64,000 bases of DNA from Candidatus Collierbacteria bacterium RIFOXYD2_FULL_45_13 (GCA_001774685.1 MFAS01000001.1:287557-351556); one strand, 5' to 3'. Shown: positions 14,847-63,474, counted from the stretch's first letter. Translations and numbers: made by a program. Notes: generated by a model from the letters alone, not told the origin.

Positions 14847-15269
14847 ATGCCTACAACTAACCAACTAATTAAACACGGGCGTCTAAATAGTGCCCGTAAA
14901 ATCAAAACCACCGCTCTTCGCAAGAGTTTCAACTCGATCAAGCGTCGTATGGTTTCTACCCAAAGTCCACAAAAGGCTGGAGTTTGTCTTCAGGTAAAAA
15001 CCATGACCCCGAAAAAACCAAACTCAGCTCTTCGCAAGATTGCCCGTGTGAGACTCTCCAACAAACAAGAGGTTACCGCCTATATCATGGGCGAGGGACA
15101 CAATCTGGCTGAGCACAGTATCGTCCTTATCCGCGGTGGTCGTGTTCGCGATCTCCCGGGTGTCAAATATCACATTGTCCGAGGAAAGCTCGATACCGGT
15201 GGTATCGAGAAGCGCCGCACTAGTCGTAGTAAATACGGCAGCAAGCGCCCTTCGGCAGCCAAAAAATAA
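14847..15269 (+). CDS. rpsL: 30S ribosomal protein S12
   Basis: [12 protein letters not shown]..., conserved [10 protein letters not shown] region. Confidence 0.95.
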
Positions 15270-15278
15270 AATAAACAT

Positions 15279-15755
15279 ATGAGATCCAAGAAAACCCCAG
15301 CCAAAAAAATCCAACTTGACCCTGTTTACGGCAGCCCTTTAATTGCCAAACTTATTACCAGTGTCATGCAAGATGGGCGTAAATCAGTTGCCGCCAAACA
15401 AGTATACAAAGCTATTGATATCGTAGCTGAACAAACCAAGCAAGACGGTGTCGAATACTTACACGCCTCTTTGGACAACATCAAACCCACCATCGAAGTC
15501 CGCTCTCGCCGTGTCGGCGGTGCTTCCTACCAAGTCCCTACCCCTATCCGTCCAGAGCGTCGTGATTCTCTTGCCATTCGCTGGCTGATCAACGCCGCCA
15601 AAGCTCGTGGAGCCAATCCTTATCGCACTCTGGCCGACAAGCTCGCCGCTGAGATCGTCGAGGCCCACGAAAACGCCGGTGCCGCTATCAAAAAGAAGCT
15701 GGATACCCACAAGATGGCTGAAGCCAACAAGGCTTTCGCCCACTTCCGCTGGTAA
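15279..15755 (+). CDS. rpsG: 30S ribosomal protein S7
   Basis: Typical S7 length and sequence, adjacent to rpsL. Confidence 0.93.
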   Translation: MRSKKTPAKKIQLDPVYGSPLIAKLITSVMQDGRKSVAAKQVYKAIDIVAEQTKQDGVEYLHASLDNIKPTIEVRSRRVGGASYQVPTPIRPERRDSLAIRWLINAAKARGANPYRTLADKLAAEIVEAHENAGAAIKKKLDTHKMAEANKAFAHFRW

Positions 15756-15796
15756 TTGGTGATTCCGCCCTTCGCTCTATTAGACTCCCCTTATCG

Positions 15797-15826
15797 ATTG
15801 TGATATAATACCCCATAACGTTTTCG
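15797..15826 (+). promoter_or_regulatory. conserved promoter motif copy 1: TTGTGATATAATACCCCATAACGTTTT (extended -10 plus conserved downstream block)
   Basis: TGATATAAT extended -10 followed by ACCCCATAACGTTTT. Near-identical copies at 16381-16410 and 42083-42104. Confidence 0.5.
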
Positions 15827-15859
15827 TCGCCCTTTCCCATTTTCTTCAAGGAGTATTCA

Positions 15860-16327
15860 ATGACCATTTTCCAGACTGTTATTCCACCTTATATTGACCC
15901 CCAAACGCGGCTCGAACTTTGGTCTGTTACCATTTTCGAGTTCGACGGGAAATATTATGCCAACCGTACCCTTCGCCAGGTCTCCACTTGGGAGGCGGAT
16001 GGTAAGTCTGTGTTGAAAGCAGTGGACGTACCCGCCAAAGTTTACGGTCCTGGTGACCCAATGATTCTCATCTCATTCCGCATGGGTAAACAAGCTGGCG
16101 TACTACTTCGCACCCGCACCGAGTTTGAGGCTTTAACTAAGGATTTTCCTATTAGGACTCAGCAAGAAGAGGCCGAGTGGCGGGAACAGGTATTAAACCT
16201 CGCAAAGTTGAGTTTTCTGAAGACTGAACATCGGATTCTTGAGCTCAAAGTTTCTCTGGCTCAAACTCAGATTGATCTCTGCCAGGCACTGGTCTCGGCT
16301 CTTCGCGAACCTCAGCCGAAGAACTGA
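15860..16327 (+). CDS. hypothetical protein (155 aa), own promoter and terminator
   Basis: AAGGAG RBS, monocistronic between the motif promoter and the terminator. No recognisable domain. Confidence 0.6.
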   Translation: MTIFQTVIPPYIDPQTRLELWSVTIFEFDGKYYANRTLRQVSTWEADGKSVLKAVDVPAKVYGPGDPMILISFRMGKQAGVLLRTRTEFEALTKDFPIRTQQEEAEWREQVLNLAKLSFLKTEHRILELKVSLAQTQIDLCQALVSALREPQPKN

Positions 16328-16351
16328 CTCCAACTTCCCTTGAAACGCGAA

Positions 16352-16375
16352 CCCCTGCTAGCCAGGGGTTTTATT
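16352..16375 (+). terminator. intrinsic terminator (cccctg/cagggg stem + TTTTATT)
   Basis: 6-bp GC stem, 5-nt loop, T-run. Confidence 0.6.
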
Positions 16376-16380
16376 ATGTT

Positions 16381-16410
16381 TTGTGTTACAATACCCCATA
16401 ACGTTTTAAG
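16381..16410 (+). promoter_or_regulatory. conserved promoter motif copy 2: TTGTGTTACAATACCCCATAACGTTTTAAG
   Basis: TGTTACAAT extended -10 plus identical ACCCCATAACGTTTT block. Upstream of the membrane-protein gene, which has an AGGAGG RBS. Confidence 0.5.
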
Positions 16411-16444
16411 TTCTTTCCAAATCTAGCTCGTATAGGAGGTCTCG

Positions 16445-17011
16445 ATGGGCGTTTTTCAAGGACACCAAGTTGCCTCATTGCTTGGCACTTTAATCATGGC
16501 GGTGTGGTTCATTCTGCCTCTGATCTTCAAAAAGCTGGAGATCATGCCAAAGATTGGAAGAGGTATGAAGTTCTGGGATTACTTCTTGGTGTACGCGTAT
16601 GCTCTGCTGATTCCGAACTCGACCTATGCGATGTTTGAGATCAGACACTTGCTCTACTTGGATGGCGTCGCTGACCTCCTCAGCATCTCCTCGTTTGTGG
16701 TTTTTGGAAGCCTTTCATTGATCGGCCTCTTAACCACGATCTGGGGCATCCGGCTGGTGGTGGACCACTATGCCAAGTCCAAGAAAGAAAGGGCCATTTA
16801 CACTATCGCTCTGTCTACCATCTGTAGCTTTGGGGCTGTGGTTGGTATCATGCAGTTCGCTAGCTTCCCAGCGATCCTCTTCCCTCCAGTTCTTATTCTC
16901 TGTGGAATAGAACTGCTCGCCAGACCCCATCTCATTCTCGTCGCCCTTGCCACCACTCTTTTTCTCTTTATTCTGAATCTCCTTCTCGACTATTTTCACC
17001 AACCCACCTAA
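16445..17011 (+). CDS. hypothetical integral membrane protein (188 aa, about 5 TM)
   Basis: Multiple hydrophobic helices, AGGAGG RBS. Stop codon sits inside the terminator stem. Confidence 0.6.
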   Translation: MGVFQGHQVASLLGTLIMAVWFILPLIFKKLEIMPKIGRGMKFWDYFLVYAYALLIPNSTYAMFEIRHLLYLDGVADLLSISSFVVFGSLSLIGLLTTIWGIRLVVDHYAKSKKERAIYTIALSTICSFGAVVGIMQFASFPAILFPPVLILCGIELLARPHLILVALATTLFLFILNLLLDYFHQPT

Positions 17012-17027
17012 TCAGTGGGTTGTTTTA
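17001..17027 (+). terminator. intrinsic terminator (aacccac/gtgggtt + GTTTTATT)
   Basis: 7-bp stem, 7-nt loop, T-run. Confidence 0.6.
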
Positions 17028-17124
17028 TTACGTTTCACGAAGGCGTTCAGTCATGGTTAGCCCTTAACCGCGCATCCCTACCAGGCTTCCATACTTGCTA
17101 AACATTCATATCGTATTCGTTCTC

Positions 17125-17152
17125 AACCCAAGCTTTAACACTTGGGTTTTTT
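17125..17152 (+). terminator. second intrinsic terminator (aacccaag/cttgggtt + TTTTTT) about 100 nt after the first
   Basis: 8-bp stem, 8-nt loop, 6 T. No ORF between the two terminators. Confidence 0.55.
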
Positions 17153-17177
17153 GTGAGTCGGATTTGAAATAATTTAC

Positions 17178-17186
17178 GGGTAGAAT
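17178..17186 (+). promoter_or_regulatory. -10 element GGGTAGAAT, 6 nt upstream of ATG (leaderless configuration)
   Basis: TAGAAT ending 6 nt before the ATG at 17193. No SD. Confidence 0.35.
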
Positions 17187-17192
17187 AGGTCT

Positions 17193-18203
17193 ATGGAACA
17201 GTCATCAGCCGACACGGAACTTAAAAAAACGGACTCAAAAGCAGAAGATGTCATAGCCAAATCACATTTTGCTGGCAATTTTTCAGAGATTGGCGATTCT
17301 GTTGATCCAAACAAAGACTTATTCATGATCTCTCTCGATTCAATAGCCGATAAAATCAAATTTCTTCCAATACTGCCTAGAGGGTATGGAATCGCAGGTG
17401 GAACTGCAAGGAGCGCATTGTTGGAGCTACTTGGCGAGGATGCACCAAGGGCTATTGATCTCGACGTAGAGGCAATTGGGGAACTTATGCCAGATTTTTC
17501 AAAAAGAGAGGAATTGGCTAATATTTTTCAACAGAATGGTCGGGTTGAGCCGATTTCCGACCAAGGAAGCTTAATTAACTATTTTAGCTCCCGTGATTTC
17601 ACGATAAATGAGGTCTTCATTTATGGGAACAATCTCTACTTTTCCCGCCGAGCCATTCAAGATATGGAGAACAAGATCATTAGGCCTACCGAAAGTGAGA
17701 CTGGTTACGACAATTTCCCGCCCAGCGACGATGTTGTTGATTGGGGATCAGTAAAACCCAAGCTTCTAGTCAAGGCTCTTCTTCTTCAAATTGAATTCAT
17801 CAAACAATTTGGGGATGGGTCAATCCAAGATGCTGAGAGGTGGCGGTGGTCCTTTAACGACATCCCCGCTTTCAACATTGCTCTCGGCTTAGATAAGGCA
17901 ACGAAAAAGAAGGTTGGGTTGGAATTCATGAAGAGACTATTCGAGCTTGGTACTATTGATAAACGCGATATTCCAGAAGGTCTTACCCCTGAAGGGATCA
18001 GGAGATTGGCTGGTCTGACAAAACACTGGATGATACGTGACGGTGACGAGCGAGATTTCCAGTTTAGTGATGATTACTTCGACCAAGAGTACCCAGAAGG
18101 GTGGGAGTCAGCAGACGATAAGAAATTCGAAGAGATCTACACTCAGGCTGTCTCTCGGGCGGTTAAGATCAAGAATGTTGACCAAGAAGAACTACAATAT
18201 TAA
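17193..18203 (+). CDS. CCA-adding enzyme / poly(A) polymerase family nucleotidyltransferase-like protein (head domain, 336 aa)
   Basis: GIAGGTARSALLELLGEDAPRAIDLDVE matches the Pol-beta nucleotidyltransferase G[GS]..R..LL...DxD. RDFTINEVFI matches the conserved RRD(F/L)TINA motif of class II tRNA nucleotidyltransferases. Confidence 0.55.
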   Translation: MEQSSADTELKKTDSKAEDVIAKSHFAGNFSEIGDSVDPNKDLFMISLDSIADKIKFLPILPRGYGIAGGTARSALLELLGEDAPRAIDLDVEAIGELMPDFSKREELANIFQQNGRVEPISDQGSLINYFSSRDFTINEVFIYGNNLYFSRRAIQDMENKIIRPTESETGYDNFPPSDDVVDWGSVKPKLLVKALLLQIEFIKQFGDGSIQDAERWRWSFNDIPAFNIALGLDKATKKKVGLEFMKRLFELGTIDKRDIPEGLTPEGIRRLAGLTKHWMIRDGDERDFQFSDDYFDQEYPEGWESADDKKFEEIYTQAVSRAVKIKNVDQEELQY

Positions 18204-18256
18204 CAAGCCTCCTATTCTAAGGGACCTTCGAATCCTGGACATGACCGAGACGCTTG

Positions 18257-18265
18257 TGGTAAAAT
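18257..18265 (+). promoter_or_regulatory. candidate extended -10 TGGTAAAAT upstream of fusA
   Basis: TGnTAnAAT match about 75 nt upstream of the fusA ATG. Confidence 0.3.
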
Positions 18266-18278
18266 TAGCCTCGTCAAT

Positions 18279-18305
18279 ACCTCTCCTTTAGTGGGGAGGT
18301 TTAGT
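18279..18305 (+). terminator. weak hairpin (cctctcc/ggggagg with one GU pair) + TTT
   Basis: Could terminate the nucleotidyltransferase gene or form part of the fusA leader. Confidence 0.3.
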
Positions 18306-18340
18306 TCGTCAATAACAAATAACTACCAACTAACACTAAA

Positions 18341-20464
18341 ATGGCCGCTCCAACCGGAAAAAAAGTCCCTCTAGACCGTGTTCGAAACACGGGAATCATT
18401 GCCCACATCGATGCTGGCAAAACCACCACCACCGAACGTATTCTTTTTTATACCGGTAAGTCCTACAAAATAGGGGATATCGACGAGGGCAACACCCAGA
18501 TGGACTGGATGGAGCAGGAAAAAGAACGTGGTATCACCATCGTGTCCGCCGCGACGACCGCTTTCTGGACCCCTGTTTTACCCCATGCCCGTTTTAAAGA
18601 AGAACATCGCTTCAATATTATTGATACTCCGGGGCACGTCGACTTTACTGCCGAGGTAGAGCGTTCACTCCGCGTTCTTGATGGAGGGGTTATCGTTCTG
18701 GATGCCGGATCAGGTGTTCAATCTCAGACCGAAACCGTTTGGCGTCAAGCCGACAAGTATCACGTCCCCCGTATCGCATTTATAAACAAAATGGACGTTT
18801 TGGGTGCCGACTATATGGCCACCATTAAAGACGTTCATGAAAAATTAGGTGCCAAAACCGCCATTATGGCACTACCTTTAGGGGTCGAAAACACTTTTAG
18901 AGGTATTGTTATGCTTCTCGAGAGAGAAACCATCGTTTGGAAAGGGGATGAAACCGGGGCTTTATATGAAGTAACCGAAGGCTTTCCTGAAGAAATGAAG
19001 GACGAATGCGAGCTCGAACGCGCTAAACTAATCGAATCTATCGTTGAATTTGATGAAGTCCTCATGGGTGAATACTTGGATGGTAAAGAGCCCGGTATGG
19101 ATGCACTCAAAGCCGCTCTTCGCACTGCCACCTGCAAAAATCAGATTGTCCCCGTGTTCCCCGGCTCATCACTTCGTAATAAGGGTGTCCAGCCTCTTCT
19201 TGACGCTGTCGTCGACTTTCTTCCATCACCTCTAGACAAACCTCTTACGGCCGGGATCAACCCTGAGACCAACGAAGAAGAAATTCGCAAAGCCGATCCC
19301 GGTGAGCCATTTTCGGGGTTAGCCTTTAAGATTCAAGCCGACCCACACGTAGGTAAACTCACGTATGTCCGTGTTTATTCAGGCAAAATTACCTCCGGTA
19401 CCTTTGTTTATAACGCCAGCAAGCGCGAACGTGAACGTCTTGGTCGCTTAATGCTAATGCATGCCAACACCCGCGAAGAAGTCTCCGAAGCTGGTGCGGG
19501 AGAAATCGTTGGTGTTGTCGGTCTCAAAGCCACCAAGACAGGGGACACTCTGTGTGATGAAAACAAACCCCTAATTCTTGAGTCAATTAACTTTCCGGAT
19601 CCAGTCATATCTCTTGCAATTGAGCCAAAAACAAAAGCAGATCAGGAAAAACTCGACCTTGCTCTTGGTCGTCTTGCCGAAGAAGATCCCACCTTTAGAA
19701 TCAAAACCGATCATGAAACCGGCCAAACCGTTATCGCCGGCATGGGTGAGCTTCACCTTGAGATTTTAGTCGACCGTCTCCGTCGCGAATTCAAAGTTGA
19801 AGCCACTACAGGCGCCCCCCAAGTTGCTTACCGTGAAACCATTACCAAGTTCGCCAAAGGCGAAGGTAAATATATCCGTCAATCCGGGGGACGCGGTCAA
19901 TATGGTCACTGTATTCTGGAAGTTACCCCCAAACCTCGCGGCGAAGGTCTTACTTTCACCAACAAAATTGTGGGTGGTGCAATCCCCAAAGAATTCATTT
20001 CTCCCATCGAAAAAGGCGTCCGCGAAGCTCTGGATAATGGAGTTATTGCCGGTTTCCAGATGGTTGATCTTGATGTAGCTGTTGTCGATGGAAGTTTCCA
20101 CGAAGTTGACTCTTCCGAAATGTCCTTCAAAATTGCCGGCTCTATGGCAGTTCAGGACGCAGTCAAGAATGCGTCTCCGGTAATTCTCGAACCTATTATG
20201 AAGGTGGAAGTCACCACTCCCGAGGGTAATATGGGTGACATTATTGGTGATCTTTCTTCCCGCCGTGCCCAAATTGCCGGTACCGCCCAGCGTGGCAACG
20301 CCCGCGTTATTACGGCCACGGTCCCCTTATCCGAACTTTCCGCTTACGCTACCGCCATCCGTTCTCTAACCGCTGGACGTGCCTCGTATTACATGGAGCC
20401 CTCACATTATCAAGATCTTCCAAATAGTTTGGCCGCCAAACTCTTGAAATCCCCGACAAACTAG
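18341..20464 (+). CDS. fusA: elongation factor G
   Basis: [18 protein letters not shown]..., DTPGHVDF, full-length EF-G. Confidence 0.95.
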
Positions 20465-20534: not shown

Positions 20535-21710
20535 ATGGCAACATTTCAAAGAACCAAACCCCACGTTAATATTGGCACCATTGGTCACGTCGACCACGGT
20601 AAGACCACTCTTACTGCCGCTATTACCACTACTTTAGCTGCTCAAGGTCTAGCAGAAGCCCTTCCTTTTGATCAGATTGATAAATCTCCGGAAGAAAGAG
20701 AGCGTGGAGTTACTATCCAAATTTCCCACGTCCCTTACGAAACCAAGAAACGTCACTACGCCCATATTGATTGCCCCGGCCACCGCGACTACATCAAGAA
20801 TATGATTACTGGTGCCGCTCAGATGGATGGTGCTATTTTAGTTGTCGCTGCCACCGACGGTCCTATGCCTCAAACCAATGAGCACTTGCTTCTTGCTCAT
20901 CAGGTGAACGTTCCTCGTTTGGTGGTTGCTCTTAACAAATGCGATGCAGTTTCTGATGAAGAACTCCTCGAGCTGGTTGAGATGGAAATCCGTGAAAAAC
21001 TAAAAAAATACGGTTTCGAAGAAGATACCCCAATTATTAGAGTCTCTGCTCTTAAGGCTCTCGAAGGCGACAAAGATGCCCAAGCCGGTATTATGAAGCT
21101 TATGGATACTGTCGACGAGTGGATTCCGGATCCGGTTCGTGAGCTCGACAAGCCTTTCTTGATGCCCGTTGAAGATGTCTTCTCCATCAAAGGCCGCGGT
21201 ACTGTCGTCACTGGCCGTATCGAAACCGGTGTTATCAAAGTTGGTGAAGAAATCGAAATTGTTGGTATCAAAGCCACCGCCAAGTCCGTCGTGACTGGAG
21301 TGGAAATGTTCCACCAACAGCTCGAGCAGGGTCAAGCAGGTGACAACGTAGGCCTTCTCCTTCGCGGTATTGAAAAAGATGATGTTCAGAGAGGTCAGGT
21401 TTTGGCCAAGACAGGTTCCATCAAGCCTCACACCAAGTTCGAAGCCGAAGCTTATATCTTAGGCAAGGACGAGGGTGGCCGCCACAGCCCCATGTTCTCT
21501 GGGTACAAGCCTCAATTCTTTATCCGTACTACAGATGTAACTGGTGAGGTCAAGCTCGCTGAAGGTGTTGAAATGATTATGCCTGGCGATAACGCCAAAA
21601 TGACTGTCGAACTCATTCAGCCCATTGCTATGACCGAAGGACAACGCTTCGCTATCCGCGAAGGAGGTTTGACGGTTGGCGCTGGAGCCATTACCAAAGT
21701 CATCGCCTAA
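20535..21710 (+). CDS. tuf: elongation factor Tu
   Basis: [22 protein letters not shown] motifs. 391 aa. Confidence 0.95.
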
Positions 21711-30427: not shown

Positions 30428-31141
30428 ATGAACATTACCGTAATCAGTTCTGGACCTCTTTCTGAAGAAACCAAAGCCTTGCTGGCTAAACTATATGAGA
30501 CCGTTGATCAAGTAATGGCTGTAGGTGAATACCGTATGGGATTTCGGACCGCCAAGATCCGGAATGGTATTCTCTACTGGCCGAAAGTCGAGGGAGGCTA
30601 TCTGGCCATCGACTCTCTGATCCGGAAAATGCACGATGCGGATACAAACCTGAAGCGTCTGGACGAAAACTTCTCTGTAGACCTCGACGACGTCGCCATC
30701 TTGGCTGAAGTTCTCGAGGAGTGTCTCAAACAGGCAGAGGGTGGTATGTTCAACCCCTCTCGGCGTCTCCAGCGCGCAGTTCAATCCATGCTCTATTCAT
30801 TCAAGAACTTATTCCCTGGAATGAAGTCGTACATGGGACAACCTCTGAACGAAGAGTTCGTTGTTTTAAGGGTCAGTTTTGACTACTACGCTCGTAAGGT
30901 CATCGCCGCGGGCGAGGAAGCCATGAAACTGGTCAACTCCAAGATCATCGACGGTCGGTTGTTCCTGAAAAGCGATGATGGATACTTGGTCGTTGACCCA
31001 GACAGCCAAGGTGGATCCTCACTGTTTCGATGCCCGGACCTCAATTTTGCGAACGCAAAAGCGGTTGGGGGCATTAGTTTTGCGAACGAACGGCAATACC
31101 GAGACATGTTTATTAGTTGGTTAAACGAAGCCGGGCTCTAA
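30428..31141 (+). CDS. hypothetical protein (237 aa) inserted between rplO and secY
   Basis: AAGGAG RBS, followed by a strong terminator. No recognisable motif. Confidence 0.6.
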   Translation: MNITVISSGPLSEETKALLAKLYETVDQVMAVGEYRMGFRTAKIRNGILYWPKVEGGYLAIDSLIRKMHDADTNLKRLDENFSVDLDDVAILAEVLEECLKQAEGGMFNPSRRLQRAVQSMLYSFKNLFPGMKSYMGQPLNEEFVVLRVSFDYYARKVIAAGEEAMKLVNSKIIDGRLFLKSDDGYLVVDPDSQGGSSLFRCPDLNFANAKAVGGISFANERQYRDMFISWLNEAGL

Positions 31142-31155
31142 AGAAAACTGATAGT

Positions 31156-31183
31156 AACCCATCTCGTCTGAGGTGGGTTTTTC
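31156..31183 (+). terminator. intrinsic terminator (cccatctc/gaggtggg + TTTTT)
   Basis: 8-bp stem including one GU pair, 4-nt loop, 5 T. Confidence 0.65.
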
Positions 31184-31198
31184 TTGACAATTATCCTA

Positions 31199-31204
31199 TA
31201 TAAT
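31199..31204 (+). promoter_or_regulatory. -10 hexamer TATAAT upstream of the membrane-protein gene
   Basis: TATAAT 47 nt upstream of the ATG at 31251. An adjacent TTGACA at 31185 has the wrong spacing (8 nt) and is not counted as a -35. Confidence 0.3.
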
Positions 31205-31250
31205 AGTACAATCCAGCTAGTTTGCATTCACTTTGACAAAGGAGTCTCAC

Positions 31251-31760
31251 ATGAGGAAATTTACCATCATCTGGTCGCTATCTTACTTGATCTTAGCTGC
31301 GGCAATGTTCGGGAGCAGCTTTCTAAGGCCTTGCGGTCCCATGACTGGCACAGGACTGTCCTGTGATTTTTCATACGGCATGAAAGCCACGATTGATATG
31401 CCTGCCGAAGTGTCGGTGGGTAGTTTCGCACCATTCACCGTGGCCTATTACTCGGATGGAGCGCTGGTTCCGATCGAAACCTTGAATCTTGGCGGTTTCT
31501 ACTATGTCGTTTTCAACACCACTGGAGCAACTGAGTTATATATGGTCAAAGCCGCCGGTGGTATTCGCTCTCCTACCATCGGAGTCGATGCACTTACAGA
31601 TTATCCGACCCTGCATGTTGTTCGTACCTGGCGGAATGTCCCACTTCAGGTGTGGAAATGGTATCTCTCTCCGGTCTTTTTCCTATGCACCATTATGTCT
31701 ATTTTGCTGCTGATGGCGGCTAGAAGCAGTTTGAAAAACAACCAAAACCACGCCGGCTAA
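31251..31760 (+). CDS. hypothetical secreted/membrane protein (signal-anchor plus C-terminal TM)
   Basis: Start at the ATG at 31251, preceded by AAGGAG. N-terminal hydrophobic segment and a C-terminal TM helix. Confidence 0.55.
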   Translation: MRKFTIIWSLSYLILAAAMFGSSFLRPCGPMTGTGLSCDFSYGMKATIDMPAEVSVGSFAPFTVAYYSDGALVPIETLNLGGFYYVVFNTTGATELYMVKAAGGIRSPTIGVDALTDYPTLHVVRTWRNVPLQVWKWYLSPVFFLCTIMSILLLMAARSSLKNNQNHAG

Positions 31761-31789
31761 ACTTCTCAGCAACCCTCAAAGGAGGTCGT

Positions 31790-32206
31790 ATGTTAAATAT
31801 GCTTGCATTCCTTGGCGTATCAAAGCCGGGAGACATTAAGCTACAAGTTCGTTCTGGAATGATGAACGGTGCCATCAGATTTTTTCGGGAAATAAGGTGG
31901 TTTGAAGTTACCGATCGTAAAGTTAACCAGCCTTGGGGCCAGACCAGATATTTCACTCCGGCCCTGAATAGTTTGGTTGTGGGTTTGTTCGAATCGTCCC
32001 ATGATCCAGACGGATTGACAATGACTCAGAGCCAGCTACCCCTTCATTTTGAGGATGTCGCCCCAGAAGTTGCTGCACGAGCGATCCTCGCGTGGGCCGA
32101 CTACGCGGAAGCTGGTGAGGGAGCTGCCATAGTATCGTACGATGAAGGCGCCCGGTGGCTAGTTTATCTGCCGGCCATCTTCACCTTCGCCATCGAGATC
32201 GTCTGA
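31790..32206 (+). CDS. hypothetical protein (138 aa)
   Basis: AAGGAGG RBS. No recognisable motif. Confidence 0.55.
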   Translation: MLNMLAFLGVSKPGDIKLQVRSGMMNGAIRFFREIRWFEVTDRKVNQPWGQTRYFTPALNSLVVGLFESSHDPDGLTMTQSQLPLHFEDVAPEVAARAILAWADYAEAGEGAAIVSYDEGARWLVYLPAIFTFAIEIV

Positions 32207-32225
32207 TCACCAACGGTATGTGTAC

Positions 32226-32251
32226 ACCACCCTTCATAGGGTGGTTTTTTT
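32226..32251 (+). terminator. intrinsic terminator (accaccc/gggtggt + TTTTTTT)
   Basis: 7-bp stem, 6-nt loop, 7 T. Confidence 0.65.
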
Positions 32252-32318
32252 ATTTGATTTACATTACCTCCAATTCAACCTGTGAATCATCGAACGAATC
32301 TGCTAGGATAAAAATATT

Positions 32319-33086
32319 ATGCCATTCAAATCATGGAACGAAATGACGGATGGACAAGAAGGTGAGTCACCTTTTTCACCAACCGGACCAACAGGGGATA
32401 TTCCTCGAACAGCAGAATCATCAGACTTGTTAACAAAGGCTGGTACGGGAGAAACATTAGATCCCGTTGCAGCAGAAAAGGCTCGCAAAAAATATCGAGC
32501 GCAGTCCAGTCAGGATATTGGCCGACTTCAGGCGAACTCCGTTTCGAGTGACATGGGTTTTGGCAACCCGGGTGAAGCCGACACCGATGAGGAAGCTCCA
32601 GAAGATTATTCTGAGGAAATTTCTCATGACGGCTATCAAGTTATTCGACCGGCCAATGCAGGTCAAGTTGAAAAACAACTCCAGACCAAACTTAAAAAAA
32701 GTTATACCGAATCAACCGATCCCCAAGATATAGAAGGTGAGAAGGATAACTGGATCGGTGACTCACCCACACTTACCGAAGCAGATCTACCTCATTTCAA
32801 TGCTAATGAACACAATCGTGAACCAAAAGGAGATAATAGTCGAATCGATATGGGTCGCTACGATGCAAGGATGCCATCTCCTAACCTAGAATCATCTGCG
32901 TCGGATTTGGAGAAAGAAAATCAAGACCGCAAACTCTGGCGCGATCCATTAGTGCCGGAGTTGATGGATGAACCAGGATTCCCAGAAGAAATTGCCAAAG
33001 AAGAGCTCAGGTTAGCTAGAAAAAAGGGGTACGTAACCGAAGCACGGGAAGAAGAGATTAAAAAACGGGCGAGGGAAGGTCGATAA
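32319..33086 (+). CDS. hypothetical acidic low-complexity protein (255 aa, D/E/P/S-rich, probably disordered)
   Basis: No hydrophobic core or known motif. Basic C-terminal tail (KKRAREGR). Confidence 0.5.
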   Translation: MPFKSWNEMTDGQEGESPFSPTGPTGDIPRTAESSDLLTKAGTGETLDPVAAEKARKKYRAQSSQDIGRLQANSVSSDMGFGNPGEADTDEEAPEDYSEEISHDGYQVIRPANAGQVEKQLQTKLKKSYTESTDPQDIEGEKDNWIGDSPTLTEADLPHFNANEHNREPKGDNSRIDMGRYDARMPSPNLESSASDLEKENQDRKLWRDPLVPELMDEPGFPEEIAKEELRLARKKGYVTEAREEEIKKRAREGR

Positions 33087-33130
33087 TCACTTCTAATTCT
33101 TGTCTTAGCTGATAGAATAGAGCTCACGGT

Positions 33131-36379: not shown

Positions 36380-36388
36380 TGCTAAAAT
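36380..36388 (+). promoter_or_regulatory. extended -10 promoter TGCTAAAAT followed by ACCCG
   Basis: TGnTAnAAT about 38 nt upstream of the ATG at 36427. TAGGAGG RBS. Confidence 0.4.
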
Positions 36389-36426
36389 ACCCGATATTCT
36401 CGCATTTTTACATTTAGGAGGCTGAT

Positions 36427-36834
36427 ATGTCCGGTAATTATATTATTCTTCATGCCGCCGATACTTCGGGAAAAGCAGACGAACTTCAGATGGATCTCCT
36501 GTTCGAAGGATTTGCCACCATCACCATCTCGGAGGTCCTTCTCCAGGGTCCTTTAAACATCCCCGAGCTGATCGAATCAGAGCTTGGTGTGATCATCGTT
36601 CTTAGCGATGATCTTTTGAAAGATATCGTCTGTCTCACCATGGCCAAGCAAGCCATGAGAGTTCAAAAGGGCACCGTTATTGTGTTTGACAAGATCTCCG
36701 CTCCAGAGTGGGCTGGGCAACCTTTCAAGTTAGTCCCTGGAGTTCTCTATGAGGTTGATTGGGAGTTTTTCCTGACCAAGCTACGCTCTGTTGAGCGCAT
36801 TTCTCGCCTTGGTGAAGAAGACATCCCAGAATAA
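36427..36834 (+). CDS. hypothetical protein (135 aa) inserted between map and infA
   Basis: Strong RBS, own promoter and terminator. No confident domain call. Confidence 0.55.
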
Positions 36835-40657: not shown

Positions 40658-41137
40658 ATGGCACAAAAACTATCCAAAAAATCAAAAATTGCTGTAAAAC
40701 CAGTCAAGACCGCACCAGTCAAAAAGGGGTCTTTATCGATGCCCAAAGAATTCTTCTCTGCTGTCGGCAGACGTAAAACCGCAATTGCGCGTGTCCGCAT
40801 CTGGCCGGGCAAACAAGAGCTTACTGTCAACGGTAAGCCGATTTCTGCCTACTTCAAAGGGGAAACCTTCAAAAAGATTTATCAGGCACCCTTTACGGTC
40901 ACTGAAACTCTTGGTCAATACACCGGCAGTATCAAAATCGCCGGCTCCGGCTTAATGTCCCAGGCAAACGCCATGGTCCACGGTATTGCCCGTGCTTTGG
41001 TAAAAGTAAACTCAGACCAATACAAACAGATTCTGAGAGACAAAGGTTTCATTACCCGCGACTCCCGTATGAAAGAAACTCGTAAAGCCGGTCAAGGTGG
41101 CCGAGCCCGCGCCAAGAAGCAAAGCCCAAAGCGTTAA
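40658..41137 (+). CDS. rpsI: 30S ribosomal protein S9
   Basis: GRRKTAIARVRIWPG.., C-terminal basic tail ..KRAKKQSPKR. Confidence 0.92.
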   Translation: MAQKLSKKSKIAVKPVKTAPVKKGSLSMPKEFFSAVGRRKTAIARVRIWPGKQELTVNGKPISAYFKGETFKKIYQAPFTVTETLGQYTGSIKIAGSGLMSQANAMVHGIARALVKVNSDQYKQILRDKGFITRDSRMKETRKAGQGGRARAKKQSPKR

Positions 41138-42045
41138 ATCTTACCCAACAACGTTTTTGCCTCCAGTTCGAGGTTCAATTCGGTGCTCGTCACGCCATCT
41201 CTTTCGGCGTCAAAATACCCACCCATGACTCTGGACGCCAGCACCGGCGCAAACTCCTTATCATTCTTCTCGGTCCATTTATTAGTCTCCTTGAACATTT
41301 TCAAAAATTGCTCTGCCAAGTCCGGTCTCTGAAGTTTTGTGTATACCCGATGATAGAAGTAGGCTACGTCATAAAACTTCAGTCCGCCCATTTGGGCCGC
41401 TTCACTGTCGATCAAATAGTAATTTCTACTCTTGGTCTTCATTATTGCCCAAGGGGTAAAGTCCCCATGACTCGCCGCGATTTCGATATCTTCTTTTCTC
41501 TCTTTAATAAATCGAAGTAGTTTTTTAGTATCTCTGTTGGAACCATTAGCCCACTCTTCGGACTTCTGTTCCAATCTTTCCGGCCATACGGTTTTAAAAT
41601 ATTCTTTGTCTTTCGGTAGCAGGCTTACCTCGGCAAGCTCTATGATATTCTTTGCTATCTTCGCCGCCACCTCAATGTCTTTTTCGGAAACACTCGCCTT
41701 CTTTTGGCCCGGTTCGGCTAGCAGTTTTCCAAAAACAAACTCCCCGATAAACCAGTATTTATCTTGAAAATATCCTTCATCAAATACTTTTGGAATTCTA
41801 AATGTTTTAAGGTATTTTTTCCAGATGGTGTTTGTGTTCTCATTGAAACATTTTTCGTTCCATGTCCTTTCTCCAATCTCTTTAGTACTCGCCAGTTTCA
41901 GAAAAAGTTTCTCGTTTTCAAACTTGACCTGACCGGTCACGTGCCGCCACGGTTGTTCCAATTTTTGTATTCGGTACCCCAGATTTTCGAAGTGTCTGCC
42001 GACCTCCTCCAGGTTCATTTTTTCCGAGATTGTTTGGCCAGGCAT
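41134..42045 (-). CDS. aminoglycoside/choline kinase-like phosphotransferase (APH/ChoK family)
   Basis: HGDFTPWAIM (Brenner HGDxxxxN-like) and LIDSEAA (Mg-binding D of a DxE/DFG-like motif) at the correct spacing. 303 aa. Convergent with rpsI. Confidence 0.55.
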   Translation of the reverse strand: MPGQTISEKMNLEEVGRHFENLGYRIQKLEQPWRHVTGQVKFENEKLFLKLASTKEIGERTWNEKCFNENTNTIWKKYLKTFRIPKVFDEGYFQDKYWFIGEFVFGKLLAEPGQKKASVSEKDIEVAAKIAKNIIELAEVSLLPKDKEYFKTVWPERLEQKSEEWANGSNRDTKKLLRFIKERKEDIEIAASHGDFTPWAIMKTKSRNYYLIDSEAAQMGGLKFYDVAYFYHRVYTKLQRPDLAEQFLKMFKETNKWTEKNDKEFAPVLASRVMGGYFDAERDGVTSTELNLELEAKTLLGKI

Positions 42046-42082: not shown

Positions 42083-42104
42083 CCGTGATATAATACCCCA
42101 TAAC
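42083..42104 (+). promoter_or_regulatory. conserved promoter motif copy 3: CCGTGATATAATACCCCATAAC
   Basis: TGATATAAT plus ACCCCATAAC, identical to copy 1 over 19 nt. Followed by AAGGAGG and a TTG start. Confidence 0.5.
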
Positions 42105-42123: not shown

Positions 42124-42522
42124 TTGAACATTAAGATTCTTGTTGATAACGTCAGTCGGGATTGGACGCCGGGTGCTTTCAAAGTACAAGCACTCAAAGA
42201 AATTATTCAAGCCGTATTCAAATGTCCCTCGACATTTATTTTTAAGCCTGCGTCTGAATACTGCTTCACGGAACTTGGTCACATCACCCCGGTCAATAAA
42301 GTCATCGTTACCATCGGACCGGAGACGCCCGACGAGCAGCCCTATCGAAGCGTCGATTTTTCAGCCAAAGCTGAACTGATCAACGAGAAGGTTCAATCCC
42401 TTCTTTTAGGATCCTCTGTACCGTACGAACTCAATTTACCTGCAGAGGTCGACATTACTGCTTTTCGGAAGGTATATTCTTTTCGAGGCAGTCAAGCCAT
42501 TGAAAAGCAGGAATGGCGGTAG
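42124..42522 (+). CDS. hypothetical protein (132 aa, TTG start)
   Basis: AAGGAGG RBS 7 nt upstream, followed by a terminator. Confidence 0.55.
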   Translation: MNIKILVDNVSRDWTPGAFKVQALKEIIQAVFKCPSTFIFKPASEYCFTELGHITPVNKVIVTIGPETPDEQPYRSVDFSAKAELINEKVQSLLLGSSVPYELNLPAEVDITAFRKVYSFRGSQAIEKQEWR

Positions 42523-55097: not shown

Positions 55098-55125
55098 TAA
55101 AACCGAGAGTCTTTCGACCATTTAG

Positions 55126-55196
55126 TCGGGGTACTCAGAATTGAACTGAGATCGCGCGCACCCCATGCGCGCATACTGCCGTTATACTATACCCCG
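55126..55196 (-). tRNA. tRNA-Pro (anticodon GGG), 71 nt, no encoded CCA
   Basis: Minus-strand fold: acceptor CGGGGTA/TACCCCG (7/7 WC), D-arm GTAT/GTAT (2 WC + 2 GU) with GG in the loop, anticodon stem CGCGC/GCGCG with loop AUGGGGU (U33, GGG, G37), variable CGAT, T-arm CTCAG-TTCAATT-CTGAG, discriminator A. Confidence 0.6.
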
Positions 55197-62857: not shown

Positions 62858-63169
62858 ATGATATATTCATATATTATGGAACAGCAAGAAAAAACTTACG
62901 CTGAGCGGATTACTGCAATTTACGAAAAAGTTAAAAACAGCCTCGGTGAAGAAAGGGCTAAATTATTTAATGAAGTAGTTAGAGGTGCCAGCTTATTAGA
63001 TGAAGATAAGAACTTATTAACCCAAATAGATAGTTTAGACATGGGTGGATTAGATATTGAGGTAAGCAAGCTTGAAGAAATTGTGGAAGGCATGAAAAGG
63101 CAGTATGAAGCTAGTAGTATTTACGAAGCCTTTGCGCCGCGAGCCCTTGCGGGCTCCCTAGTACAATAA
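62858..63169 (+). CDS. hypothetical protein (about 100 aa) in an AT-rich segment
   Basis: Charged helical composition. Start uncertain (alternative ATG at 62876). Weak. Confidence 0.35.
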   Translation: MIYSYIMEQQEKTYAERITAIYEKVKNSLGEERAKLFNEVVRGASLLDEDKNLLTQIDSLDMGGLDIEVSKLEEIVEGMKRQYEASSIYEAFAPRALAGSLVQ

Positions 63170-63184
63170 GCCGGATTCTGTCGT

Positions 63185-63455
63185 GGAGGAATATCTATCT
63201 ATGCTCGAGACTTTAGGGATAGAAAAGGCACCTTAGTCCCAATTCGTCGATTGCAGCGGGGCGGGTTACCACCCCTATACCGTTACCGGTACAGGGTCTC
63301 CACCTAACGGTGGAACGTTTCACCTTTGATCGTCTCTGTGGCCCTATCGCGCCTCCCGAGTCACCTCGGGAAGGACTGGGTTTCCCCAGCCACCCTTCCT
63401 TTTAGCTGTCCGGACTTTCCTCCCCACCTTGCGGCGGGGCATTCCTCTCGTACTA
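63185..63455 (-). ncRNA. rnpB: RNase P RNA, compact bacterial type
   Basis: Minus strand contains GGAAAGTCCGGAC (P4 5' strand), CCCCGCC-GCAA-GGTGGGG (P3 with GNRA loop), GGGGAAACCCAG, ACAGAGA, GGTGAAAC, GGGACTAAGG (P4 3' strand). P1 GAGGAAT/ATTCCTC defines the ends. GC-rich with no ORF. Confidence 0.75.
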
Positions 63456-63465
63456 GGGATAGCCA

Positions 63466-63474
63466 ATTCTACCA
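63466..63474 (-). promoter_or_regulatory. extended -10 promoter TGGTAGAAT for rnpB (minus strand)
   Basis: TGGTAGAAT ends about 7-10 nt upstream of the inferred 5' end of P1. Same nonamer as upstream of infA. Confidence 0.4.

Follow-up and report, generated by a model that had tools for sequence, protein, structure and literature searches.

We analysed a 64-kb window of DNA (the window being the whole stretch; coordinates below are positions within it) from a groundwater metagenome-assembled genome of Candidatus Collierbacteria, which belongs to the candidate phyla radiation (CPR; Microgenomates), and focused on its str cluster, in which the ribosomal protein genes rpsL and rpsG (S12 and S7) precede fusA and tuf (EF-G and EF-Tu). 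Here rpsG and fusA lie 2585 nucleotides (nt) apart, and the interval contains three genes, denoted p155, p188 and p336 after the number of amino acids (aa) that they encode. Our analysis indicates that this 2.6-kb interval is probably an old, clade-wide variable slot in the form that it takes in one species, situated at a promoter boundary that existed beforehand. The genes of the cluster are listed below, the three intervening ones as open reading frames (ORFs).

14847-15269, + strand: rpsL (Pfam Ribosom_S12_S23, 9e-35), left conserved flank
15279-15755, + strand: rpsG (Pfam Ribosomal_S7, 3e-54), left conserved flank
15860-16327, + strand: p155, ORF of 155 aa with an AAGGAG Shine-Dalgarno sequence ahead of its ATG
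16445-17011, + strand: p188, ORF of 188 aa, polytopic membrane protein, probable divergent DUF1361 member
17193-18203, + strand: p336, ORF of 336 aa, class II nucleotidyltransferase-like
18341-20464, + strand: fusA (Pfam EF-G domains), right conserved flank
20535-21710, + strand: tuf, right conserved flank

The sequence-only reading that this work followed up had described a str cluster interrupted by genes of 155, 188 and 336 aa, and this description stands: the ORF coordinates are exactly those that it gave, and Pfam confirms S12, S7 and EF-G. As in the canonical str operon of E. coli and B. subtilis (rpsL-rpsG-fusA-tufA), the order rpsL-rpsG-fusA-tuf is kept on a single strand, and the cluster is embedded in an rpoBC - str - S10 - spc supercluster. 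Unlike in the canonical operon, rpsG and fusA are not adjacent, the distance being 2585 nt here and, in 71 other bacteria, 25 nt at the median; fusA is preceded by a conserved promoter and leader of its own, and three extra genes carrying their own signals lie in between. These genes are additions relative to both the outgroups and bacteria generally, where the gaps are short, as had been supposed. The flanks are well conserved, with protein identities to clade relatives of 70-97% for rpsL-rpsG, and within the clade of 76-96% for fusA and 92-98% for tuf (six relatives compared). Contigs that come from independent samples and assemblers have the identical gene order (24 were read, some longer than 1 Mb, among them L001 from ENA and L002 from Logan, such labels denoting the loci of relatives), and literature searches found no published description of this rpsG|fusA split.

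Age and distribution of the split

Relatives were sampled from metagenome contigs with a lineage-specific query, the last 226 aa of RpoC, so that the sampling took no account of the insert; loci that had been retrieved before by way of p188 or p336 homologs constitute a sample biased toward insert-bearing loci. In all 16 of the rpoC-retrieved clade loci that contain both genes, the rpsG-fusA gap measures 1942-7035 nt, and in L096 more than 9 kb follow rpsG with fusA not within the locus. The six clade loci fetched through p188 or p336 give gaps of 1558-9143 nt, and throughout the loci with p336 or p188 homologs the homolog occupies the same rpsG-fusA slot, except for one distant p336 relative. 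The gap is 5-735 nt in CPR loci outside the clade, and in a background set of 80 non-CPR loci, found by a search with S7, fusA follows rpsG in 71, at a distance of at most 321 nt. On a neighbour-joining tree of EF-G every split locus falls within one clade, all 19 lineages of which have a gap of at least 1.5 kb; the nearest outgroups on this tree are L123 (93 nt), L117 and L118 (78-79 nt) and L124 (735 nt). Because all split loci form a single EF-G clade and the outgroups have short gaps, the tree indicates that the rpsG|fusA split is of single origin, old and clade-wide in Candidatus Collierbacteria. The comparison of synteny that the sequence-only reading had proposed gives two answers: the split is universal in the lineage (19/19), and the three-gene content is not, this set being seen only in this species and in no other locus compared.

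A distant CPR lineage, whose RpoC is 52-57% identical to that of the window, has no fusA within 3.7-6.2 kb after rpsG (L129:11603-15320, L130 and L134:3225-9449). Its cargo families are unrelated to those of the clade, and it may represent an independent split.

Promoters, leader and terminators

The position of the slot is best understood from the region immediately ahead of fusA, which consists of the following elements.

18236-18340, + strand: fusA promoter and leader, with a -35-like TGGACA (18236), an extended -10 element TGGTAAAAT (18257-18265) and conserved TAGCCTCGT
18279-18300, + strand: leader hairpin (18282-18299 by hairpin scan), folding better than shuffled sequence; GTTTAGTTCGTC comes next, then A-rich sequence as far as the ATG

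Approximately 85 nt before fusA (TGnTAAAATTAGCCTCGTG, the hairpin, GTTTnnTTCGTC and the A-rich stretch) are kept throughout the clade loci, irrespective of the upstream gene, and the same promoter and hairpin, with a stronger U-tract, fill the short rpsG-fusA spacer of the outgroups L123 and L124. Since promoter and leader are also present in these unsplit outgroups, fusA-tuf would have been a transcription unit of its own before the slot opened. This runs counter to the earlier proposal of an insertion into a conserved operon junction, as rpsG|fusA would already have been a boundary between transcription units. The hairpin is located downstream of the conserved -10 box and so is predicted to belong to the fusA transcript; the segment 18279-18305, which had been taken for the terminator of p336, is instead part of the conserved fusA leader. 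The hairpin covaries, with five of its eight pairs changed on both sides and a covariation score reached by none of 500 shuffles. In L097 (17846-17940) the leader hairpin is missing and fusA starts with a GTG 7 nt past the -10 box, so that fusA appears leaderless there; this spacing from the conserved box supports the predicted fusA transcription start.

We consider the fusA leader a candidate attenuator of EF-G and EF-Tu expression. No Rfam covariance model matches within 15700-18400 at E<=1, and over the whole window the only Rfam match at gathering thresholds is RNase P RNA. For a terminator-like leader in this rpsG-fusA position there is a streptococcal precedent (PMC2965389), which the window resembles in having a hairpin and U-rich tract (18279-18312) downstream of rpsG and before fusA, likewise a candidate attenuator. 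The two differ in that the window's leader has no sequence similarity to the streptococcal one, its hairpin begins 14 nt past the extended -10 element, equivalent to approximately 7 nt into the predicted fusA transcript, and its U-tract is weak in the window's subclade (GTTTAGTT) and strong in the outgroups.

The signals recognised inside the slot are given below.

15791-15824, + strand: promoter copy 1, extended -10 with TG at 15801-15802 and TATAAT at 15804-15809, then conserved ACCCCATAACGTTTT; -35-like TAGACT at 15781
16349-16381, + strand: terminator after p155 (hairpin 16349-16371), 9-bp stem then a T-rich tail; -14.7 kcal/mol, z score -2.8
16374-16407, + strand: promoter copy 2, extended -10 with TG at 16384-16385 and TACAAT at 16387-16392, then ACCCCATAACGTTTT
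17000-17035, + strand: p188 terminator (hairpin 17000-17022), whose 5' arm covers the last codons and the stop codon; -12.1 kcal/mol, z score -3.7
17028-17124, + strand: orphan stretch, followed by a terminator-like hairpin (17125-17148, z score -3.4) that follows no gene
17181-17186, + strand: -10 hexamer TAGAAT of p336, at a spacing of exactly 6 nt from the ATG and without a Shine-Dalgarno sequence

The two promoter copies form a 34-nt direct repeat, 85% identical and 583 nt apart, which bears out the near-identical promoter motif that the sequence-only reading had noticed before the first two genes. A 17-mer within it, ATACCCCATAACGTTTT, is exact in both copies, and with up to three mismatches it has four matches in the window, compared with 0.13 expected by chance. 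Hairpins were likewise found near all four of the positions that had been proposed (16349-16371, 17000-17022, 17125-17148 and 18282-18299), each folding much better than shuffled sequence (z scores of -2.8 to -3.7). The claim that every gene has its own promoter and terminator holds in part: there is a promoter-like element for each gene and a terminator after p155 and after p188, but none for p336 and none between rpsG and p155, where the 45 nt after rpsG fold at a z score of 0.06. Because no terminator follows rpsG, p155 would not be insulated from rpsL-rpsG read-through. The element at 17125-17152, which had been counted among the bracketing terminators, corresponds to the hairpin that follows no gene.

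Predicted promoters at 15801, 16384, 17181, 18257 and 20474 (the last an extended -10 site ahead of tuf), together with predicted terminators at 16349 and 17000, argue against a single rpsL-to-tuf transcript. That each of the three genes is monocistronic is a prediction as well, and a doubtful one for p155, which has no upstream terminator and whose homologs lie 7-9 nt from p188 in relatives, and for p336, which lacks its own terminator. For p336 the geometry itself is informative: its orthologs (L003:3349-3365 and L004:3997-4013) have TATAAT or TAGAAT, then 6 nt, then the ATG, with no Shine-Dalgarno sequence, exactly as at 17181-17195 in the window, and the N-terminal residues ME are invariant in nine p336 homologs. 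The p336 mRNA is predicted to be leaderless, with a geometry conserved in three lineages.

Support for reading the extended -10 as a start signal comes from the window as a whole, where TGnTAnAATW occurs 13 times (chance expectation 4.4) and is located just upstream of a gene start or, once, an RNA 5' end at 11 of these sites. The gene starts concerned are those of an ORF at 223, rpsL, p155, p188, fusA, tuf, secY, an ORF at 36427, the presumed infA and an ORF at 42124. The RNA is RNase P RNA (63151-63474, - strand; Rfam RF00010, 129.9 bits), for which the extended -10 TGGTAGAAT ends 6 nt before the 5' end (63459). This distance to an Rfam-defined 5' end serves as an internal check, and it suggests that the extended -10 marks real starts approximately 7 nt downstream.

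The slot signals are also conserved across relatives. Within the subclade of the window and the sister subclades, rpsG is followed by the promoter TGnTAnAATAYCCCATAA, and a second copy stands ahead of p155, p188 or DEAD-box helicase homologs; an orthologous copy of the p188-type promoter precedes p188 in L086, L089 and L003, and the p188 terminator is kept after the p188 orthologs of L086, L094 and L092. Across the loci of approximately 20 kb from the subclade and its sisters, the motif lies almost only in the slot and always on the + strand, with one degenerate outside match, in L097. In comparison with L094, what is missing from the window is precisely the segment bounded by two copies of the promoter motif, and such a loss is the outcome that would be expected of recombination between promoter repeats. 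The conserved discriminator and start region ACCCCATAA may mark a class of co-regulated promoters.

Further matches and unassigned segments deserve mention in their own right. An exact copy of the slot motif, GTGATATAATACCCCATAAC, lies at 42085-42104 before a 132-aa ORF (42124-42522), and a degenerate copy, TGCTAAAATACCCGATAT, lies at 36380-36397 before a 135-aa ORF (36427-36834); neither ORF has a Pfam match. The 5' untranslated region of p155 (15810-15837) and the 3' part of the p188 coding sequence (16924-16951) share 28 nt with 82% identity, which may be chance or a trace of recombination. The orphan stretch including its hairpin (17028-17148) has no homolog in related slots by blastn or tblastn, no Rfam match and no convincing ORF in six frames; our guess is that it is the remnant of a lost gene's 3' end, or it may be a small RNA. 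An integron-like cassette array was considered for the slot and rejected, as an integrase is lacking and the hairpins have the look of intrinsic terminators (GC-rich stems with T-runs, one of them over a stop codon).

Slot cargo and the p336 family

The slot ORFs from all loci were clustered and scanned with Pfam, which gave the following families (F numbers denote clusters).

F1, DEAH (HrpA-like) helicase: nine ORFs in eight loci, essentially one subclade
F2, p188: eight loci, seven lineages
F3, p155 family: four loci
F6, DEAD-box helicase: four loci
F7, p336: three loci
Aminotransferase and radical-SAM pair: three loci
Canonical 886-aa PolyA_pol+RNAbd+HD enzyme: L089 and L095
DUF559 homing-endonuclease-like protein, immediately after rpsG: L097 and L111
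Further cargo: MttB, HAD hydrolase, VWA lipoprotein, AAA ATPase, methyltransferase and HicA

The most recurrent slot gene of the window's subclade is p188, which has homologs of 44-76% identity in the same slot of seven other loci (six other lineages). Its identities to relatives (76, 71, 65, 63, 57 and 44%) roughly track species divergence, as vertical descent predicts. The protein has five to six hydrophobic segments, in agreement with its earlier description as polytopic. Among the searches of profile databases that had been suggested for the three proteins, only p188 returns a match, to Pfam DUF1361 (PF07099), with an E value of 0.006 and 16.9 bits, below the gathering cut-off of 25; almost the full profile, positions 30-167 of 169, is aligned. 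NCBIfam, like PHROGs and PADLOC, returns nothing for p188. DUF1361 matches occur in 12 of 14 p188 family members, with a best E value of 3.8e-5 and all scores below or near the cut-off, and this recurrence points to p188 being a divergent DUF1361 membrane protein. As DUF1361 is a family without known function, this membership says nothing about the role of p188.

Turning to p155, a word-indexed search of 5.8 billion proteins returned only the protein itself, and it matches no Pfam, NCBIfam, PHROGs or PADLOC family. Local BLAST found homologs, 24-32% identical, in the same slot of L092, L094 and L097, and p155 is, judging from these searches, clade-restricted. In two of these three relatives the homolog lies 7-9 nt upstream of p188 and looks operonic, and in the window the pair is separated by a terminator and the second promoter copy. 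A single-sequence AlphaFold2 model of p155 (predicted local distance difference test, pLDDT, 64) has a beta-rich N-terminus and a long C-terminal helix, and was too poor for a fold search.

The third gene, p336, is the one for which the most can be said about the protein. Its motifs GG..R (residues 69-73), DxD (89-91), RDFTxNE (134-140) and D157..K161.IRP align with motifs A (GG..R...DxD), B (RDFTxN) and C (D..xK.IR) of canonical class II enzymes. Across 44 sequences G69, R73, D89, D91, D135 and N139 are invariant and G70, R134 and F136 are at least 90% conserved, and the metal-binding DxD and ribose-sensing RDFTxNE occur in all homologs. In motif D, EDxxR is replaced by PKLxxKALxL (PKLLVKALLLQ), at the place where the canonical L089 enzyme has EDPVR, and because of this replacement the nucleotide specificity of p336 cannot be inferred. 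The AlphaFold2 model (pLDDT 76, predicted template modelling score 0.76) was compared with the PDB by Foldseek, and the 13 best matches are all class II: 12 are CCA-adding or A-adding enzymes or poly(A) polymerases and one is the head domain of a CCA-adding enzyme. These matches reach E values down to 1.5e-4 with probabilities of 0.96-1.00 over 144-332 aligned columns, with TM-scores of only 0.26-0.40. Alignment to a canonical enzyme by hhalign (E 6.5e-5) and profile searches agree weakly.

Family profiles, for their part, do not recognise p336: it has no PF01743 (PolyA_pol) match even at E<=1 and no NCBIfam, PHROGs or PADLOC match, and across p336 and 43 relatives (44 sequences scanned) no Pfam family matches at E<=0.01. 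An exhaustive profile search (E<=1e-3) places at least 606 clusters at 50% identity in the family, and cluster look-ups for p336 relatives yielded neither names nor taxa. On motifs and predicted fold, p336 belongs to an unannotated family remotely related to class II nucleotidyltransferases, which is in line with the CCA/PAP-like character (CCA-adding enzyme/poly(A) polymerase) that the sequence-only reading had assigned to it. The likeness lies in motifs A-C and in a predicted fold that matches only class II enzymes (PF01743; PDB 7oqx, 5hc9, 3h3a, 3aqm and 1vfg), and the differences are its shorter length (336 aa), a divergent helical body, the missing PF01743 match and the missing EDxxR. Between p336 and the 886-aa PolyA_pol protein of the L089 slot there is no direct relation by hidden Markov model or BLAST search, the similarity being one of motifs at profile level.

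In contrast to p188, whose identities roughly follow the species, p336 is distributed incongruently, with 61% identity to L003 versus 45% to the phylogenetically closer L004, and neither of the closest relatives, L094 and L086, has it. Its GC content is the lowest among the local genes (z score -2), p155 and p188 being typical, and three distant family members sit in unrelated gene contexts. This patchy and incongruent distribution, together with the low GC content, suggests that p336 may have moved between Collierbacteria. The single tRNA gene of the window, tRNA-Pro(GGG) at 55125-55196 (- strand), does not itself encode the 3' CCA, being followed by CTA, so that the organism needs a CCA-adding activity; no canonical CCA enzyme is encoded within the 64-kb window.

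Several relatives carry slot genes of separate interest. The 886-aa enzyme (PolyA_pol, PolyA_pol_RNAbd and HD; EDPVR motif) is found at L089:12877-15537 and L095:14632-17292, both on the - strand, where it adjoins a 724-aa domainless protein and a DUF7387/HicA pair; these loci, from one related lineage, are identical in slot content and gap. Directly past rpsG, L097:11688-12536 and L111:1588-2472 encode a zinc-ribbon and DUF559/MTES_1575 protein resembling a homing endonuclease, and L004:3027-3413 encodes a 128-aa protein that looks HNH-like by eye. Free-standing homing endonucleases could help DNA to enter the slot.

Other junctions of the window carry accessory ORFs as well, which the sequence-only reading had combined with the slot into one repeated pattern. 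Between rplO and secY (30428-33086) lie four ORFs of 237, 175, 138 and 255 aa without a Pfam match, and secY has its own extended -10 at 33110. The map-infA ORF (36427-36834) and the ORF after rpsI are real ORFs without a Pfam match; the latter (41134-42045, - strand, 303 aa), earlier called a kinase, has none at E<=0.01, and its HGDFTPW...D motif gives it the look of an aminoglycoside/choline-kinase fold by eye only. None of the window's accessory ORFs (30428-33086, 36427, 41134 and 42124) is paralogous to the slot families.

Interpretation of the slot

In the reading that we consider probable, the extended -10 promoter and structured leader that fusA-tuf already has in the nearest unsplit relatives would divide the str operon into two transcription units, and neither would be disturbed by genes located downstream of the rpsG stop codon and ahead of the fusA promoter. 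Having opened once, at the base of the clade, the slot would since have undergone refilling, extension and trimming, with vertical inheritance inside subclades for much of the cargo (DEAH helicase, DEAD-box helicase and p188) and a patchy distribution for some of it (p336 and p155). In the window, p155 would be driven by the clade-conserved promoter TGnTAnAATACCCCATAACG, with rpsL-rpsG read-through probably reaching it too; p188 would use the duplicate of this promoter and the conserved terminator; and p336, a putative class II-like RNA nucleotidyltransferase without EDxxR, would be translated from a leaderless mRNA starting 7 nt past its -10 box. For the homologous recombination by which cassettes would be gained and lost, the promoter repeats are the most likely substrates.

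A number of points weigh against this interpretation. The promoters, terminators and leaderless start are predictions from sequence, and recombination between promoter repeats rests on the single comparison of the window with L094. The tree is a single-protein neighbour-joining tree without support values, in which clade boundaries lie at approximately 70-77% EF-G or RpoC identity, and several loci stop short of fusA, so that their gaps are lower bounds. Flanking DNA is 78-86% identical even to the nearest relatives, and for this reason turnover would be slow and single recombination events are not reconstructible. Lastly, 17 of the 22 complete slots contain an RNA helicase or a class II nucleotidyltransferase (F1 DEAH, F6 DEAD-box, F7 p336 or the canonical PolyA_pol+RNAbd+HD enzyme of L089 and L095), a recurrence which is confounded by shared ancestry and from which the slot may be functionally selected and not merely permissive.

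This recurrence is the main argument for an alternative in which the slot is a selected site for interchangeable RNA-metabolism enzymes co-regulated with translation genes, and p336 a working RNA or tRNA 3'-end nucleotidyltransferase. The retention of DxD and RDFTxNE in all p336 homologs and the need of the window's sole tRNA gene, tRNA-Pro, for CCA addition fit with it. The enrichment, however, largely reflects vertical inheritance in two subclades and hence few independent events, and the slot also holds cargo unrelated to RNA (aminotransferase, radical SAM, MttB, VWA lipoprotein, HAD hydrolase and HicA). Relatives of p336 elsewhere have unrelated neighbours, and p336 itself lacks EDxxR and is absent from L094 and L086, which makes it unlikely to be essential. 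We regard this alternative as unlikely. A bolder combination, which we hold to be somewhat more doubtful still, would make rpsG|fusA a dedicated promoter-equipped site for interchangeable RNA-remodelling enzymes, p336 the founder of a CPR-rich class II branch with a non-canonical pocket that modifies tRNA or rRNA 3' ends, and the fusA hairpin a new attenuator coupling EF-G and EF-Tu synthesis to the state of the translation apparatus, all three jointly.

The view that builds on the sequence-only reading, in which three autonomous modules entered an intact str operon fairly recently, perhaps through a mobile mechanism, as part of a genome-wide habit at operon junctions, appears improbable and is, for the slot as a whole, largely refuted. 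It would account for the promoter-like element of each gene, the strong terminators of two, the 34-nt direct repeat flanking the p155 cassette, the low GC content and patchy, incongruent distribution of p336, and the ORFs without Pfam match at other junctions of the window. Against it stand the clade-wide split of single origin, the synteny of p188 in seven lineages with identity roughly following divergence, the operon-like spacing of p155 and p188 homologs in relatives, and a fusA promoter that predates the split. Nor is the direct repeat an insertion scar, as it is the clade-conserved promoter. The three ORFs include no integrase, transposase or recombinase, the nearest tRNA gene is at 55125, the sole flanking repeat is the duplicated promoter, and p155, p188 and p336 have no phage (PHROGs) or defence (PADLOC) match, only p336 being compositionally off. 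Content does vary between species, but the flanking DNA of those species is itself no more than 78-86% identical.

A defence or hypervariable island collecting anti-phage systems and toxin-antitoxin genes seems very improbable. Some relatives have a HicA toxin with its DUF7387 partner, one has an AAA ATPase with AriA/PtuA-like matches beside a methyltransferase, one radical SAM protein shows weak pVip similarity, and L097 and L111 have the DUF559 homing-endonuclease-like gene. Yet p155, p188 and p336 match no PADLOC family at E<=0.1, the helicase matches are generic, none of the known systems was recognised in complete form, and the majority of slots contain one or two genes of housekeeping-like character. 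An assembly or binning artefact producing a chimeric contig, for which nothing beyond the window's origin in a metagenome-assembled genome was found to speak, merits almost no credence given the gene order repeated on contigs from independent samples and assemblers (24 contigs read) and the homologous slots in approximately 20 related lineages.

Variable regions and integration hotspots between core genes are a general concept of comparative genomics, and the slot is a further instance of this already known kind of genome feature. It resembles other core-flanked variable regions in its highly conserved flanks, its species-specific content and its mixture of vertical and patchy genes. It differs in being small (1.5-9 kb), in lying inside the genome's most conserved supercluster without an integrase or tRNA gene, and in reusing one conserved promoter motif before several cargo genes. 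Two leads emerge from it, namely the p336 family, with its predicted class II fold and altered nucleotide pocket, and the conserved, covarying fusA-tuf leader hairpin; neither alters a general principle. The finding is useful for the annotation of CPR genomes and for the use of ribosomal-protein synteny in binning and phylogeny, and it cautions that not every interruption of an operon is a recent insertion. Even in a reduced CPR genome, the most conserved supercluster would hold a long-lived, tolerated variable slot, whose position is explained by a pre-existing promoter boundary.

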